From an uncultured virus (IMG/VR IMGVR_UViG_3300032268_000966) (lineage: Duplodnaviria > Heunggongvirae > Uroviricota > Caudoviricetes): a stretch of DNA of 64,000 nucleotides. The first letter of the stretch is position 1. Every line of letters begins with the position of its first letter. The notes beneath the pieces were generated by a model. It did no database searches and was not told where the DNA came from. It saw only the letters and a list, made by a program, of their open reading frames with translations. Position numbers and translations under genes: made by a program. Positions 11,567 through 50,045 of the stretch are shown here, piece after piece. The stretch is from IMG/VR virus record IMGVR_UViG_3300032268_000966; one strand, 5' to 3'.

Positions 11567-12283
11567 ATGAAAAAGATATTATTAATGGCGGGACTTTTAG
11601 TCTCAATGGCTTCCTATGGCCAAACTGTAGGTAAAACTCAGACAGAACAATATAAAGCATCTTTTGAGACCGCAATAGATATTAGTCGGTTTTTGGATTA
11701 CGATGGACCACAAATACCAATACAAATATTAAAGGCGGGAATCTCAGACGAAATGTATGAGATGTATCCTGAACTTAAAGAAAAAAGAGTTGGATTAGGG
11801 GTTGCGAATATTTCAATGGAATACCTTGAGAATCTTAATCGTTTTAAATTCACAGAAGATAAAACAGAAATTAAGAATAGAATGGTTAAGCAATTCCAAG
11901 CTTCACAATCGGGAATTTCTGAGAATAAATTAGACGGTAGAGGTAAAATTAATTTGGCACAATACTTCGTAACAATTGAGTGTTACGATTATTCTGTATC
12001 TGAAGATGAAACCGTCAATTTACAGAATGGGGTTAAAAATTTAATGGTTACCCGTATTGGTTTACAAGTAAGATTCACAAATGCAGAAACAGGAGTTGTA
12101 TTTGGTGCGTCAGGATTAGGTGAAGCAAAGACAACAAGAGAACTAACTTTATTATCAGATGCAACCGTAGACCCAATTAAATTTAATCAATCAACAATAT
12201 CAATTGCGACTAAAAAAGCTCTTGATATTGCTTGTGCTAGAATCTTAGATAGGATGATTAAAAAAGGAATTTACACCAAATAA
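11567..12283 (+). CDS. CsgG/HfaB-like outer-membrane channel protein
   Basis: Signal peptide; NRFKFTE, AQYFVTIEC and IGLQVRFTNAETGVV match the CsgG-family pattern. Confidence 0.6.
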   Translation: MKKILLMAGLLVSMASYGQTVGKTQTEQYKASFETAIDISRFLDYDGPQIPIQILKAGISDEMYEMYPELKEKRVGLGVANISMEYLENLNRFKFTEDKTEIKNRMVKQFQASQSGISENKLDGRGKINLAQYFVTIECYDYSVSEDETVNLQNGVKNLMVTRIGLQVRFTNAETGVVFGASGLGEAKTTRELTLLSDATVDPIKFNQSTISIATKKALDIACARILDRMIKKGIYTK

Positions 12284-17093: not shown

Positions 17094-17516
17094 ATGAAAA
17101 CAACACTCACACTCTTTTTATTATTTATTTCTTTTGTTGGTAAAAGTCAGACTTCTGATATTATGTATGTTCCCGATGAAAAAAGTTTGGTAGTTACGTA
17201 CAACAATAATTATAATGGTTTTGGTTATTATATCGGTGGATATGTGACTACAACGTTTCCTCAACCATATATCTACACAACACCTCAGTCAAGAATAAAT
17301 AGAGTTGGGATTAGTTTAACCAATCATAAATTTTCTATTATGGGTGGTGTTTTTGGTGAAACTTATTTTAATGGTGTCAATTTCAAACCAGATGTTTGGG
17401 TTAAGGTATATCCATTAAGAATATTAACTAATACCAAACGTGGACCCGATTTAACTGTTGGTATAAATTTCATGCAAGGAATTAGATACGGTTTTGGGTT
17501 ATCAATTCCATTTTGA
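17094..17516 (+). CDS. small outer-membrane beta-barrel protein
   Basis: Signal peptide, alternating strands, C-terminal Phe; TATATTTG upstream. Confidence 0.65.
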   Translation: MKTTLTLFLLFISFVGKSQTSDIMYVPDEKSLVVTYNNNYNGFGYYIGGYVTTTFPQPYIYTTPQSRINRVGISLTNHKFSIMGGVFGETYFNGVNFKPDVWVKVYPLRILTNTKRGPDLTVGINFMQGIRYGFGLSIPF

Positions 17517-41557: not shown

Positions 41558-42277
41558 ATGAAACTAAAACAATTATTTCTTGCAATTTTCGCAACATCGG
41601 TATTATTTGTATCTTGTACAAAAGACGACGTGTATGACCCAGTTAAACAAACTTCAATTGAATCAACTCAAGGAGAAGACTTAAGAACAATGTCAACATC
41701 TCCGACTGTTTCATCAGTTGGACCAAAGGCTTATATTTTTGTTGAGCCTCAGTCAAAACTCAATATGATTGTGAGTTATTTAAAGACAAGACCTCGTAGT
41801 ACACAAACCCCGACAAACACTCCATTTTATGGTTTTTTTACTGGGTCACCAATCAAATCAACAAATTATACTGATTTGTTAAATTATATTGATATGCCGT
41901 ATTGGTATAATGGAACATTACCTACAGTCATTCAATCAAATATTACACAAACTTCGGCAGGTGTGTATAATTTTGGAACGGTTAAAATTAATGGTCCTTT
42001 AGTTAATAATCAATTTGTGTGGATTATGGTATTAATTCCTGTGAATGCAACACCTAACCCAAATTGGAGACAATCAAGAATGTCTAGTGCGCATACCAAT
42101 ATGATATATAGAACTCCTTTCAATACTAATTCTACATTATCTGATTATGTTTTAAATTACACGGGAACTCGTATTCCTGTTGGGGAATACAGAGTTTATA
42201 GTACGTACTCAGGTACAGAATTAAGACCAAAAGTTGTAGGTGATTTTTACCTGAAAGGTAGTAACACATTACCTTAA
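41558..42277 (+). CDS. lipoprotein
   Basis: FVSC lipobox followed by TKDD export-like signal; TATCTTTG upstream. Confidence 0.75.
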   Translation: MKLKQLFLAIFATSVLFVSCTKDDVYDPVKQTSIESTQGEDLRTMSTSPTVSSVGPKAYIFVEPQSKLNMIVSYLKTRPRSTQTPTNTPFYGFFTGSPIKSTNYTDLLNYIDMPYWYNGTLPTVIQSNITQTSAGVYNFGTVKINGPLVNNQFVWIMVLIPVNATPNPNWRQSRMSSAHTNMIYRTPFNTNSTLSDYVLNYTGTRIPVGEYRVYSTYSGTELRPKVVGDFYLKGSNTLP

Positions 42278-42332
42278 AAAACTAAAATAGGGATTTATTT
42301 GATTTTGAATATATTTATTGTAATATTGTACT

Positions 42333-42431
42333 ATGAAAACTATGAACACAAATACAAATTTAGACACGCCGACAACTCCTAATGGAGATGGGGGCACTAT
42401 ATGCGTAAGTTCAGAAGCGAGTGGTTGGTAA
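42333..42431 (+). CDS. leader peptide 1 (32 aa) of the Pro/Asn/Asp/Gly/Thr tRNA operon
   Basis: MKTMNTNTNLDTPTTPNGDGGTICVSSEASGW; contains antiterminator strand 42405-42414. Confidence 0.85.
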   Translation: MKTMNTNTNLDTPTTPNGDGGTICVSSEASGW

Positions 42432-42452
42432 CAATATTATAGCCAATTATTT

Positions 42453-42483
42453 AAACCCTGAACTTATCCTTCAGGGTTTTTTT
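42453..42483 (+). terminator. attenuator terminator 1
   Basis: AAACCCTGAA-cttatcc-TTCAGGGTTT plus T-tract; 5' arm can instead pair with 42405-42414. Confidence 0.9.
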
Positions 42484-42493
42484 ATTTACGGGG

Positions 42494-42507
42494 GTTCTTT
42501 GACATAT
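42494..42507 (+). promoter_or_regulatory. boxA-like antitermination element
   Basis: GTTCTTTGACATAT resembles rrn boxA (GCTCTTTAACA); paralleled at 50008. Confidence 0.65.
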
Positions 42508-42525
42508 AAAAATGAAATAAAATAT

Positions 42526-42601
42526 AGGGTAGTGGGCTAATTGGCTAAGCCTCCACGTTTGGGACGTGGACATCATCCAAGTTCGAGTCTTGGTTACCCT
42601 A
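42526..42601 (+). tRNA. tRNA-Pro(TGG)
   Basis: AGGGTAG/TTACCCT; CCACG-TTTGGGA-CGTGG. Confidence 0.93.
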
Positions 42602-42607
42602 CATTAT

Positions 42608-42692
42608 TGACACGTTGCCATAGAGGCCGAATGGTCCAGACTGTTAATCTGGTGAGTAAAATCCAACGTAGGTTCGAATCCTACCGTGTCAG
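42608..42692 (+). tRNA. tRNA-Asn(GTT), long variable region
   Basis: TGACACG/CGTGTCA; CCAGA-CTGTTAA-TCTGG. Confidence 0.9.
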
Positions 42693-42734
42693 CTTTATTT
42701 TTTGAATAATTTATTATATTTATATTAACTAATA

Positions 42735-43283
42735 ATGTTAATCATGAGTAAATACTTCGAAAAAATAATGGAGTTAAGAAGTCAGGGTAAAACCTATAAA
42801 GAAATTTGTAAAGAATTAAATTGTGCGATGTCGACAGTATCGTATCACTGTAAACTCAACAAAGTTGCAGGACATAGTGATAGATTAACGGAAGAACAAA
42901 AAATAGAATTACAAGGACTTTATAATGAAATTGGTTCGGTAAAAAAAGTTGCAAAATTAAAAGGACATGCAACCAGTACTGTTTTAAAATATGTTGTAAC
43001 AAAAAATAAAGGTAAAACAGTTTCAAAAACTGAGGCGGTTATTGAATGGAGAAAACGAACAAAACAAAGACTGATTGAATATAAAGGTGGTGAGTGTGAA
43101 TTATGTGGATATAAAAAATGTAACAGGGCTTTACAGTTTCATCATCTAAATCCTGAAGAGAAAGACTTTTCAATCTCAGGTAAAAGCTTTAGTTTTGATA
43201 AACTAAAAGACGAGGTAAAAAAGTGTGTATTAGTATGTTCTAATTGTCATTCTGAAATACATGACGGTTTAATTACATTATAA
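42735..43283 (+). CDS. HTH plus HNH homing-type endonuclease
   Basis: CELCG...LQFHH...CVLVCSNCHSEIH; two N-terminal HTH-like segments. Confidence 0.85.
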   Translation: MLIMSKYFEKIMELRSQGKTYKEICKELNCAMSTVSYHCKLNKVAGHSDRLTEEQKIELQGLYNEIGSVKKVAKLKGHATSTVLKYVVTKNKGKTVSKTEAVIEWRKRTKQRLIEYKGGECELCGYKKCNRALQFHHLNPEEKDFSISGKSFSFDKLKDEVKKCVLVCSNCHSEIHDGLITL

Positions 43284-43366
43284 CAAGTGAGGTGGGTGGA
43301 AAAATTCCAATGTTGTAGTATCGTGGATGGAGTAATCCTGAAGCATAAACAGACAAAAAGAAAAAA

Positions 43367-43855
43367 ATGAAGTTAAAAACATTCTTATTGACTGGGATGT
43401 TATTGTTAGGAACAATGACAACCAAAGCACAAGAGAAGCAAGTACAGATTAAATCAAATACTCAAGAGAGTATCTCAAAAGAAAGTTTGTATGAGCAGAT
43501 AATTAAGTATGGTATAAAATTTCCTGATATTGTGTTCGCACAAGCAATATTAGAATCAGGAGAGTTTACATCAAAGTTGTTCAAATCAGCTAACAATCTT
43601 TTCGGAATGAAAGTTCCTGCTAAAAGAGAATCCGCAAAAATTGGGGTAACCCAAAGTGGTTACTCAAAGTACGAAGATTGGGAGTATAGCGTGTATGATT
43701 ATTCATTGTGGCAGGACCACATGTTAAAATCACGTAATGATATAACAAAAAAACAATATTTTGTGTTACTTGGTAAAGTTTATGCCGAGGACCCACAATA
43801 TGTTAACAAATTGAAGCAAAGAATATCAGAATATAATCATATCTTTGTTGACTAA
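43367..43855 (+). CDS. secreted GH73 glucosaminidase (FlgJ-like)
   Basis: AQAILESG, NNLFGMK and YAEDPQY motifs; signal peptide. Confidence 0.88.
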   Translation: MKLKTFLLTGMLLLGTMTTKAQEKQVQIKSNTQESISKESLYEQIIKYGIKFPDIVFAQAILESGEFTSKLFKSANNLFGMKVPAKRESAKIGVTQSGYSKYEDWEYSVYDYSLWQDHMLKSRNDITKKQYFVLLGKVYAEDPQYVNKLKQRISEYNHIFVD

Positions 43856-43882
43856 AGATTTGGGGTGAAACTCCCCATACAC

Positions 43883-43955
43883 GGTTCCGTGGTTGAATGG
43901 TTACAATTCCACCCTGTCACGGTGCGAGATACGGGTTCGAATCCCGTCGGGACCG
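43883..43955 (+). tRNA. tRNA-Asp(GTC)
   Basis: GGTTCCG/CGGGACC; loop CTGTCAC. Confidence 0.93.
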
Positions 43956-44012
43956 CAAAGTGGATAAAATGTGTAGTAACCACAGGGAAGGTACCTCCCA
44001 CTGCACTCCATT

Positions 44013-44085
44013 GCGGTAGTAGCTCAGTTGGTAGAGCTCGTTCCTTCCAAGTACGAGGTCGCAGGTTCGAACCCTGTCTACCGCT
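44013..44085 (+). tRNA. tRNA-Gly(TCC)
   Basis: GCGGTAG/CTACCGC, U73; loop CTTCCAA. Confidence 0.93.
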
Positions 44086-44135
44086 CAAAACAATAATCTT
44101 CCAACTTTTTTTTAAGTTGGAAGATATTTATATCT

Positions 44136-44552
44136 ATGGAAACAAAAAAATGTAAAAGATGCCAATTGGATTTACCCAAAGATGATATTCATTTTGCAAG
44201 TAGATATGATAGAAAGGAGAAACAATTTCAACACATGTGTAGAAATTGTCAAAAAGAATATAGAAAAGAACACTATGATGCTAATAAAGAAAAGTATATT
44301 CAAAAATCTAATCTATATTCGCAAAACTTTAAGGAATGGTTTACCGAAATAAAGAAACTTTTATCTTGTAAAAAATGTGGAGAGAATAGATATTGGGTTT
44401 TAGATTTTCACCATACCAATCCAGCTAAAAAAGATACTGATATATCAACACTATTGAAGTATAATAATAAGCAAAGAGTATTAGATGAAATTGATAAGTG
44501 TGTTGTACTATGTGCAAATTGTCATAGAGATTTACACCATCATCAAAGATAA
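44136..44552 (+). CDS. HNH endonuclease
   Basis: CKRC, CKKCG...LDFHH...CVVLCANCHRDLH. Confidence 0.85.
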   Translation: METKKCKRCQLDLPKDDIHFASRYDRKEKQFQHMCRNCQKEYRKEHYDANKEKYIQKSNLYSQNFKEWFTEIKKLLSCKKCGENRYWVLDFHHTNPAKKDTDISTLLKYNNKQRVLDEIDKCVVLCANCHRDLHHHQR

Positions 44553-44556
44553 ATAG

Positions 44557-44630
44557 GCCCCCTTAGCTCAGCAGGCCAGAGCGCGAAATTTGTAATTTCG
44601 ATGTCGTTGGTTCGATTCCGACAGGGGGCT
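44557..44630 (+). tRNA. tRNA-Thr(TGT)
   Basis: GCCCCCT/AGGGGGC; CGAAA-TTTGTAA-TTTCG. Confidence 0.93.
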
Positions 44631-44646
44631 CAAAAATTTTTATTTA

Positions 44647-48564: not shown

Positions 48565-48597
48565 AAAACCCCGACTAAAAAAGTTCGGGGTTTTTTT
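48565..48597 (+). terminator. intrinsic terminator
   Basis: AAAACCCCGA/TCGGGGTTTT plus T-tract. Confidence 0.85.
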
Positions 48598-49184: not shown

Positions 49185-49245
49185 CAATATTTATAAAAAA
49201 AGATATAATAGATTTTGTAAACCAAAATATTTTTGTATCTTTGTA

Positions 49246-49335
49246 TTGTGATTGAGGAGCACGATTTAGATACACAAGCTCGATTACAAACTGGGTAACA
49301 CGGGAACGATTTAGATACTAGTGTTACCCTTTTTT
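49246..49335 (+). ncRNA. putative twin-hairpin small RNA with repeated loop motif ACGATTTAGATAC
   Basis: Own TATCTTTG promoter (49236), two stems, identical 13-mer in both loops, terminal T-tract. Confidence 0.7.
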
Positions 49336-49336
49336 A

Positions 49337-49783: not shown

Positions 49784-49814
49784 TTTGACAACTAAAAGAT
49801 TTTTACTATCTTTG
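49784..49814 (+). promoter_or_regulatory. Bacteroidota sigmaA-type promoter of leader 2
   Basis: TTTG(49784)-N19-TATCTTTG(49807). Confidence 0.8.
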
Positions 49815-49832
49815 AACTATATATTAGAAACA

Positions 49833-49943
49833 ATGAGAACTACAATAAAACATATGGTCTTTGGTCAACAACAAGAAACTTGTTGGTATGAGCGTATGCA
49901 GTCATGTAGTTCGGATATAATTTTGAATAATTTTTTAACCTAA
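49833..49943 (+). CDS. leader peptide 2 (36 aa) of the 11-tRNA operon
   Basis: MRTTIKHMVFGQQQETCWYERMQSCSSDIILNNFLT; contains antiterminator strand 49905-49914. Confidence 0.85.
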   Translation: MRTTIKHMVFGQQQETCWYERMQSCSSDIILNNFLT

Positions 49944-49965
49944 AAATAAACCAAATTTTTTATAC

Positions 49966-50000
49966 ACCCTGAACTACAGAAATGAAGTTCAGGGTTTTTT
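49966..50000 (+). terminator. attenuator terminator 2
   Basis: ACCCTGAACT-N10-AGTTCAGGGT plus T-tract; 5' arm can instead pair with 49905-49914. Confidence 0.9.
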
Positions 50001-50007
50001 GTTTTTG

Positions 50008-50022
50008 GCTCTTTGAAATATT
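50008..50022 (+). promoter_or_regulatory. boxA-like antitermination element
   Basis: GCTCTTTGAAATATT at the same relative position as 42494. Confidence 0.65.
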
Positions 50023-50045
50023 GATTGTATCTTTGTGAAACAAAT

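Follow-up and report, generated by a model that had tools for sequence, protein, structure and literature searches.

The regulation of phage tRNA genes, and the reasons for the particular sets that phages carry, are poorly understood. The question is raised by a locus in a 64,000-nucleotide stretch of DNA from an uncultured virus of the class Caudoviricetes (IMG/VR record IMGVR_UViG_3300032268_000966; the whole stretch is called the window below): what governs the tRNA genes for Pro, Asn, Asp, Gly and Thr that follow, on the same strand, a 32-codon open reading frame (ORF) and an intrinsic terminator? The original prediction, made from the letters of the DNA, took the ORF for a leader peptide (Leader 1) keyed to these five tRNAs. 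Comparison with relatives supports that view. Judged from the alignments, the ORF is coding, conservation and covariation extend to both RNA helices, and the geometry is constant; most relatives have their tRNA genes, tRNA-Pro first, directly against the terminator, and the codon cassettes correspond to the tRNAs behind them. We infer from this material the start of transcription, translation of the ORF, ribosome stalling, the efficiency of termination and the direction of the response. On balance it seems probable, at somewhat better than an even chance, that the locus is a ribosome-mediated leader-peptide attenuator, gating the phage tRNA array by the speed at which its own codons are decoded.

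In the proposed mechanism a Bacteroidota-type promoter would fire and transcription would start at about the ATG of the ORF. Region 2 (AGTTCAG) and the hairpin P2 would emerge first, then region 3 (CTGAACT, in the 5' arm of the terminator) and last region 4. A ribosome delayed in codons 5-21, which demand only Asn, Thr, Asp, Pro, Gly and one Leu (plus Ala in most relatives), would leave region 2 free to pair with region 3 around P2; the terminator would then fail to nucleate, and the polymerase would reach tRNA-Pro and the genes behind it. With fast reading the ribosome, in running to the stop codon 21 nucleotides on, would cover region 2 and P2; region 3 would then pair with region 4, and transcription would stop. 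Because the output consists of tRNAs for the sensor's own codons, the product would feed back on the decoding-speed signal.

Relatives of the leader and the evolution of its ORF

Searching the phage GenBank collection with blastn revealed no annotated close relative, only HNH and tRNA pieces matching at a coverage of at most 6%; the nearest record (G001) carries the same module. IMG/VR was scanned both by a back-translated peptide pattern and by the terminator arms, and the two scans returned the same 16 viral contigs. A third sample was drawn from metagenomes with an alignment of the neighbouring glucosaminidase, a procedure blind to the leader, and yielded 29 loci. The module is present in all 24 that extend at least 230 nucleotides upstream of tRNA-Pro; two of the other five are cut by the contig end within the module and three begin behind tRNA-Pro. 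With the window included, the collection comprises 41 loci and 22 distinct versions (alignment A3), the latter being the safer count because some contigs are entered both among the viral and among the metagenome loci. tRNA-Pro is the first gene behind the module at 41 of 41 loci. The source is described as a lake phage, and the relatives are uncultured freshwater phages.

Conservation on this scale bears on the possibility that chance placed a mini-ORF of low complexity, and a terminator belonging to the upstream gene, before the tRNA genes. The frequent use of N, T, D, P and G in linkers and the very many windows scanned speak for such a coincidence, which we nevertheless consider very improbable: across the 41 loci the leader is better conserved than the neighbouring protein, the glucosaminidase falling to 58-72% identity in diverged lineages while the leader stays much closer, and the same figures speak against an origin of the relatives from one recent clone.

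The ORF encodes MKTMNTNTNLDTPTTPNGDGGTICVSSEASGW. Its codons 5-22, the sensor, read NTNTNLDTPTTPNGDGGT, and 17 of these 18 specify N, T, D, P or G, as originally described. In the corresponding part of the alignment (columns 8-27) ten columns vary synonymously only, through sets such as AAC/AAT, ACA/ACG/ACT, TTA/CTT/TTG, CCG/CCT/CCA, GGG/GGA/GGT and others, and there are only a few amino acid replacements (T to L, T to R, N to D, D to G, and G/A). The mixed synonymous codons had been read as a sampling of several isoacceptors; this finds no support, as the phage has one tRNA per codon box here. All four indels within the ORF are multiples of three (+9, +3, +3 and +3, namely a 9-nucleotide duplication, an extra Leu codon, an extra Asn codon and an extra Asp codon near the C-terminus), and those 3' of the stop codon are single bases. 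In codons 23-32 the amino acid changes in nearly every column while the number of codons stays constant, and the Ser codon lying in region 2 is TCA in all 22 versions. Judging by these substitutions, codons 1-22 are selected at the amino acid level, and the last ten codons drift and retain their length and their RNA pairing. Such a pattern is what would be expected of a leader with a codon-read front and an RNA-constrained back.

The unit, complete with promoter, ORF and terminator, could be an autonomous small gene making a 32-amino-acid peptide or a dual-function RNA of about 150 nucleotides, with the tRNAs expressed through a leaky terminator or from starts of their own. Conservation of the order of the 22 N-terminal residues would suit a peptide, and the strong structure of the RNA (see below) would suit a functional transcript. 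The free exchange of amino acids in the C-terminal third does not suit a peptide, and the 32-residue sequence matched no family in Pfam or PHROGs. For these and further reasons given in the following sections, we judge this explanation unlikely.

Alternative RNA folds and the position of the ribosome

A terminator scan recovered T1 as a stem of ten pairs, four of them G-C, with a loop of seven nucleotides and a T tail. The stem is kept in 22 of 22 versions. The alternative pairing put forward in the original prediction, between positions 42405-42414 and 42458-42467, forms together with the inner hairpin TGGTTGGT/GCCAATTA the minimum-free-energy fold of 42333-42490 (-40.3 kcal/mol; z = -4.08), unequalled by any of 200 shuffles. 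When the RNA is truncated 5' of region 4, the region 2:3 helix and P2 appear in 21 of the 22 versions; in the exception, L079, a different upstream word pairs with the same terminator arm. The stop codon (42429-42431) is located in the apical loop of P2, directly 3' of the P2 5' arm. The arms of P2 differ by lineage and stay complementary (GTGGTTGG/CCAATTAT, AATTTTTG/CAAAAATT and TATAAGTTG/CAACTATA). RNAalifold, run on the 22 versions, gave the terminator and a second hairpin, P0, only, missing P2 because P2 is out of register between lineages; per-sequence folds were used instead. In P0, the pair at columns 105/114 (UG in 14 versions, UA in 4, AU in 4) shows a compensatory change involving two synonymous third positions. 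This conserved hairpin may serve as a pause or timing element.

A joint alignment of Leader 1 with a paralogous leader of the same window, Leader 2 (described below), was also made (A4; 33 rows, 26 distinct). Among the 26 distinct rows, 95.6% of 182 cells pair in the antiterminator and 93.3% of 208 cells in the terminator. Column 78, in region 3, pairs with region 2 as AU (15), GC (9) or GU (2) and with region 4 as UA (15), CG (8) or UG (2). Neither the observed paired share nor the covariation score was reached by any shuffle, and slid controls were at most 57% paired. Regions 2, 3 and 4 thus appear to covary three ways between the two paralogous leaders, a real signal from a small sample of events, because most of it reflects one paralogue split. 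Helices of at least 10 base pairs between the ORF and the 5' arm plus loop of the terminator, the length seen in the window, are rare by chance: 0.7% of 5000 shuffles contain one, as do 14 of 1319 natural windows of 96 nucleotides. An autonomous small gene does not account for a terminator-pairing word that covaries with the terminator and keeps a constant distance to the stop codon.

This distance is what would place the switch under the control of a ribosome: for both leaders, the majority of versions have AGTTC[A/G]G beginning 21 nucleotides 5' of the stop codon. A ribosome footprint was modelled, by assumption, as a mask from -15 to +14 around the A-site codon on pre-terminator RNA. In this model region 2:3 forms with a probability of at least 0.97 when the A-site is at any of codons 1-21 and is blocked from codon 22 to the stop, a boundary common to Leader 1 of the window, L010, L011 and L017. 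In L070 the limit shifts to codon 23, and L069 and L079 give lower and less uniform probabilities. The boundary between codons 21 and 22 coincides with the end of amino acid conservation. The outcome depends on the footprint assumed, and a ribosome at the stop codon masks just the last base of the region 2 core. When the full hairpin was included in an equilibrium model, the antiterminator was favoured for stalls at codons 9-16 (0.56-0.89), and mixed values were obtained at codons 17-20. Ribosome-masked folding had been proposed as a check on the original prediction; it leaves region 2:3 open at codons 1-21 in the pre-terminator RNA and gives a mixed picture at equilibrium.

Truncated Leader 1 RNA free of ribosomes also forms the antiterminator (P = 0.99), so that in the model loss of translation should give read-through, unlike in trp. 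Since translation loss alone would suffice, the element could be a translation-coupled terminator that senses general translation capacity, any slowing or loss of ribosomes turning the tRNA island on. We regard this as improbable because of the codon content of the leaders, to which we return in the next section.

Alternative terminator and antiterminator helices in front of tRNA genes also recall RNA switches that bind uncharged tRNA, as T-boxes do, or an element for pre-tRNA processing, either of which would make the ORF incidental. Neither a T-box sequence nor a specifier loop was seen, and the ORF is clearly under coding selection. Apart from tRNAs no Rfam family matched, even with E values up to 10 admitted, the best hit having 20 bits where the gathering score is 99. 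The 13 weak matches in 42250-42720 include no amino-acid operon leader (Thr, His, Trp, Leu and so on), and no T-box was matched at gathering score or at E values up to 10. An explanation of this kind is hardly credible.

Codon cassettes and the tRNA arrays behind them

Leader 2 lies further along the same strand, behind a canonical promoter. Its ORF of 36 codons (MRTTIKHMVFGQQQETCWYERMQSCSSDIILNNFLT) is followed by genes for tRNA-Glu, Val, Phe, Cys, Trp, Tyr, Met, Gln, Arg, Met, Ile and Ser. Region 2 of Leader 2, TGTAGTTCGG, pairs with CTGAACTACA of a terminator having the stem words of T1; region 1 (GAACUACA, codons 2-4) can in turn pair with region 2, giving an 8-bp region 1:2 helix. The pattern of the first eight codons of Leader 2 led to 26 viral loci, comprising 11 distinct versions with a terminator and one distant version. 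These relatives read MKTTIKHMVFSTQQKSICWYERMRDCSSD... before Glu, Val, Phe, Lys, Cys, Trp, Tyr, Met, Gln, Arg and, in some, His tRNAs. Leaders 1 and 2 have in common an MKT start, region 2, P2 and the terminator, and the C-terminus SSDIIFE is identical in Leader 1 of L017 and Leader 2 of L087. The shared start, position of region 2 and C-terminus point to a common chassis that differs in its codon cassette.

Three terminators before tRNA blocks (42453-42479, 48566-48592 and 49967-49999) have near-identical stem words, CCC[T/C]GA(A)C ... GTTC[A/G]GGG, which suggests module duplication or recombination within the island.

How well each cassette fits its array was assessed against the amino acid frequencies of 55 long ORFs of the window, in which N, T, D, P and G together make up 0.317. 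For codons 5-22 of Leader 1, at least 17 of 18 residues in this set has a binomial P of 4e-8, a figure that exaggerates the significance for a low-complexity peptide. In the sensor codons 2-21 of Leader 1, 18 of 20 residues belong to the tRNA set encoded between the two leaders; the Leader 2 sensor has 12 of 20 in the set behind it, its cassette (V, F, Q, E, C, W, Y, R, M and others) fitting the Glu-Val-Phe-Cys-Trp-Tyr-Met-Gln-Arg array. When the 16 amino acid types were re-dealt with the peptides held fixed, the true split was the unique best, 1 of 8008 in the window and 1 of 19448 in a relative. Within 21 residues the Leader 2 sensor of this relative takes in every one of the ten amino acid types that its array serves (P = 1.7e-4). 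The fit extends to Arg codons: those of the ERMR word of Leader 2 are CGT and CGC (10% and 2% of Arg codons in the window), in keeping with the tRNA-Arg(ACG) behind Leader 2, and AGA codons in diverged versions of Leader 1 are in keeping with the tRNA-Arg(TCT) behind Leader 1. At codon 20 of Leader 1, all four loci with Gly are without tRNA-Ala and 11 of 13 loci with Ala have it, a weak relation because it probably goes back to a single evolutionary event. The Lys codons of Leader 2 bear no clean relation to the presence of tRNA-Lys.

In Leader 2 of relatives (L087, for example) the residues run V F K C W Y M R, parallel to the tRNA genes Val Phe Lys Cys Trp Tyr Met (Gln) Arg, which we take for no more than a curiosity. 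With a longest common subsequence of 8, the collinearity of Leader 2 has P of about 0.01 in the relative and 0.045 in the window; that of Leader 1 is not significant (0.2-0.45).

A third cassette is found in a distant phage, G002. Its leader, MKTTMKHMNFSNPCQNWVKSYITLQRLRCLSFNSMV, is devoid of A, D, E and G, for which the frequencies in the window give a chance of 0.759^36, or about 5e-5, and the 17-tRNA array about 10 nucleotides behind the terminator of this leader is without Ala, Asp, Glu and Gly. A second G002 leader, MKNLHISLIGGDLAETTFKERV, includes A, D, E and G, both of its Ile codons are ATA, and it precedes tRNAs for Leu(TAA), Ile(TAT), Ala and Glu. Inside the array, on the reverse strand of G002 (L109), ARAGORN also reports two tRNA-like genes of unknown identity, at about 11996-12088 and 17204-17289, with a two-base 'anticodon' (tt).

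These matches bear on three of the alternatives. A sensor of general translation capacity agrees with the finding that two leaders jointly use all 20 amino acids; it needs neither a cassette limited to six amino acids nor the loss of A, D, E and G in step with the G002 array. An autonomous small gene fails to explain three leaders built on one chassis with cassettes that each fit their own array. Against chance stand the coding signature, the covarying helices and a matching that is replicated in Leader 2 and in G002.

One further unit of the window resembles the leaders in outline and is a point for small autonomous genes: at 49214-49336 a promoter and a terminator occur with no tRNA behind them, a convergent gene following instead. 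It consists of a TTTG...TATCTTTG promoter, the direct repeat ACGATTTAGATAC (twice) and the terminator GGGTAACAC..GTGTTACCC-T6, and could be a small RNA or a GTG-started mini-ORF of 16 codons.

Read-through into the tRNA genes and relation to known systems

The TTTG-N19-TAATATTG candidate proposed from the start is present in the sequence, and positions 42309-42328 are identical across 21 of the 22 distinct versions. It resembles Bacteroidota-type TTTG/TAnnTTTG promoters; the strict pattern misses it because an A replaces the first T of TTTG. Strict TTTG-N17-23-TAnnTTTG sites number 16 in the window against 6.45 expected, a count that none of 100 shuffles reached, while a sigma-70 promoter scan of the window was uninformative (78 sites, 65 expected). 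Since the -7 box ends 4 nucleotides 5' of the ATG, the mRNA is probably leaderless or nearly so.

Between the U tract and tRNA-Pro lie 5-8 nucleotides at 32 loci, 20 at one locus, and 38-43, with the motif GTTCTTTGACAT, at eight loci including the window. A gap of 5-8 nucleotides holds no promoter; in those phages the array must therefore be transcribed through T1. The core of the spacer motif was located at most 60 nucleotides 5' of a tRNA gene in 14 of 18 distinct contexts among the loci examined. Copies tend to stand near the first tRNA of a block, and a weaker one is present at 50008-50021. As a promoter the motif was rejected: it offers no fitting sigma-70 spacing, and no TAnnTTTG box comes after it. 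The 46-nucleotide spacer of the window contains no strict TTTG...TAnnTTTG site. The motif is transcribed, being behind a -7 box, in L084, L094 and G002, and falls within the promoter spacer before tRNA-Glu.

Several observations weigh against an attenuator, or limit its reach. At equilibrium, full-length RNA prefers the antiterminator in just three of 22 versions, the window included; the terminator form is the more stable in the other 19, by 0.9-9.1 kcal/mol, so that the choice must be kinetic. The antiterminator core is 6-7 base pairs in most versions, and a complement of 7 pairs arises in 25% of shuffles, a point for chance as well; the argument accordingly rests on the fixed place of the core and on its covariation. 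Region 1:2 of Leader 1 in the window (UGAAC:GUUCA) is a weak helix of 5 pairs, unconserved in the diverged group. Residue order in the sensor is more conserved than a pure sensor of composition requires. The matching of codons to tRNAs is, from what the arrays contain, statistical and not perfect: codon 2 of Leader 2 in the window is AGA, contrary to the Arg-codon fit; Leader 2 retains K and H codons where the window shows no tRNA-Lys or tRNA-His; and two viral lineages (L017 and L025) retain an Ala codon with no tRNA-Ala nearby.

Further reservations concern transcription. A separate good promoter comes after Leader 2 (TTTG-N20-TATCTTTG, 50004-50035, before tRNA-Glu) and after the second G002 leader, before their tRNAs, which makes read-through unnecessary there and is what autonomous small genes would show. 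Because part of the spacer motif stands in the spacer of the tRNA-Glu promoter, a separate start for tRNA-Pro is possible in the window. The hairpin at 44096-44125 has T-rich flanks on both strands and, if it terminates, may sever tRNA-Thr from the leader transcript in the window. The number of the five tRNAs truly controlled by the leader there may thus be limited by the spacer and by the hairpin behind tRNA-Gly. Four metatranscriptome runs were available as assembled contigs, which show neither ends nor levels and in which DNA carry-over is possible. Contigs from three runs in three studies span from 42287 or 42295 to 42359, 42433 or 42442, joined to the upstream gene of a relative; one ends in adapter sequence at 42442, and none is shown crossing T1. 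Joined as they are to the upstream gene, with ends and levels unreadable, these contigs are silent on the terminator.

Table 1. Positions in the window of Leader 1, its RNA elements and the genes around it, and of Leader 2
Feature	Position	Strand	Details	Basis
Upstream gene, 239 codons	ends 42277		precedes the promoter	
Leader promoter	42298..42328	+	-33 TTTG 42298-42301, 19-nucleotide spacer, -7 box TAATATTG 42321-42328	sequence
Leader ORF 1, 32 codons + TAA	42333..42431	+	first ATG invariant in 22 of 22 versions	
Sensor codons 5-22 (NTNTNLDTPTTPNGDGGT)	42345..42398	+		
Hairpin P0, within the ORF	42368..42395	+	GCC..CUCC/GGAG..GGC	folds, RNAalifold
Region 2, antiterminator 5' arm GTAAGTTCAG	42405..42414	+	core AGTTCAG; antiterminator 3' arm 42458-42467	
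Hairpin P2, inside the antiterminator	42419..42452	+		per-sequence folds
Intrinsic terminator T1 with T-rich tail	42453..42486	+	stem 42453-42479; 5' arm 42453-42462 (region 3), 3' arm 42470-42479 (region 4)	
Conserved motif GTTCTTTGACATAT	42494..42507	+	in the spacer before tRNA-Pro	
Spacer, 46 nucleotides	up to 42525		between T1 and tRNA-Pro	
tRNA-Pro (TGG)	42526..42602	+		ARAGORN
tRNA-Asn (GTT)	42608..42693	+	86 nucleotides, long variable arm	ARAGORN
HNH gene	42735-43283			
Glucosaminidase gene	43367-43855			
tRNA-Asp (GTC)	43883..43956	+		ARAGORN
tRNA-Gly (TCC)	44013..44086	+		ARAGORN
Hairpin, 12 bp	44096-44125		between tRNA-Gly and the second HNH gene	
Second HNH gene	44136-44552			
tRNA-Thr (TGT)	44557..44631	+		ARAGORN
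Leader 2 (paralogous)	49784..50000	+	promoter 49784-49814; ORF 49833-49943; region 2 49905-49914; terminator 49967-49994 + T tract	

All five tRNA genes named in the original prediction were recovered (Table 1). The window is a low-GC phage segment rich in tRNAs (21 genes) that also encodes a ClpP-like protease, HNH endonucleases and a secreted glucosaminidase. The tRNA block behind Leader 1 is interrupted by two genes for HNH homing endonucleases; relatives such as L016 are without both, and there the Gly and Thr genes lie 3 nucleotides apart. The glucosaminidase is endolysin-like, with an N-terminus that by eye resembles a signal peptide, and stands between Asn and Asp in all relatives seen; being inside the tRNA block, it would be co-controlled by the leader. 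A tRNA-Asn(GTT) with a long variable arm also occurs in L001, L014, L017 and G002 (89 nucleotides in G002). Its discriminator is A, and other relatives have an ordinary tRNA-Asn of 73 nucleotides at the same place. Alignment of the long-arm form with the Tyr, Ser and Leu tRNAs of the window revealed no clear parent.

Clusters of tRNA genes are familiar from large phages, T4 among them, whose cluster includes small stable RNAs. The present locus is like these islands in belonging to a large phage and in having small units and homing endonucleases scattered among its clustered tRNA genes. It is unlike them in its proposed leader-peptide control, of which the texts reached by full-text literature searches gave no account, whether for tRNA genes in general or for phage tRNA arrays; within its main text, an article on bacterial tRNA arrays (PMC8421152) mentions no attenuation, leader, terminator or small ORF. 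If the attenuator is real, attenuation would gain a new class of targets and reach into viruses of Bacteroidota-like hosts, and the supply of tRNA would be under direct feedback through sensing of the product. One chassis with different cassettes would amount to a natural design for codon-specific translation sensors.

As to purpose, we offer a tentative and rather doubtful suggestion: the tRNA blocks may be inducible counter-measures and the leaders codon test strips for host tRNAs that are lost or scarce. Triggers could be host anticodon nucleases, other defences that deplete tRNAs, or a mismatch in codon usage. Each leader would induce matching replacement tRNAs and switch off once decoding recovers, and chassis and swappable cassettes would form a modular, evolvable family of sensors across tRNA-rich phages. 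Whatever its purpose, the attenuator would lend testable predictions, namely block-specific induction and the effects of cassette swaps, to the view that phage tRNAs compensate for shortage or cleavage of host tRNAs.

Among bacterial systems, T-box riboswitches, which are typical of Firmicutes, sense the state of a specific tRNA, much as is proposed here, through a terminator/antiterminator switch upstream of translation-related genes; unlike the phage leaders, they bind tRNA directly and need no ORF, and none of their sequence features were found here. Another is the chromosomal pheST attenuator of bacteria, in which the leader peptide pheM precedes the genes for phenylalanyl-tRNA synthetase. 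There, as would be the case in the phage, leader-peptide attenuation acts on a gene of the translation apparatus and not on amino acid synthesis, although the target in pheST is a synthetase and a single amino acid is sensed, as opposed to a phage tRNA array. The multivalent attenuators of enterobacteria offer a parallel in design: the thr leader responds to Thr and Ile, and that of ilvGMEDA to Ile, Val and Leu. The phage leaders are like them in having a short ORF rich in the sensed codons, several amino acids per leader, an intrinsic terminator, an antiterminator that uses its 5' arm, and a choice that would be set by the position of the ribosome. They differ in that phage tRNAs would be regulated in place of biosynthetic enzymes, so that the quantity sensed would be decoding by the product itself, in the number of amino acid types per leader (up to 6-13), and in the location of region 2, which is upstream of the stop codon and not downstream. 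Finally, Leader 1 has no conserved region 1:2 helix, and absence of translation should therefore give read-through rather than superattenuation.

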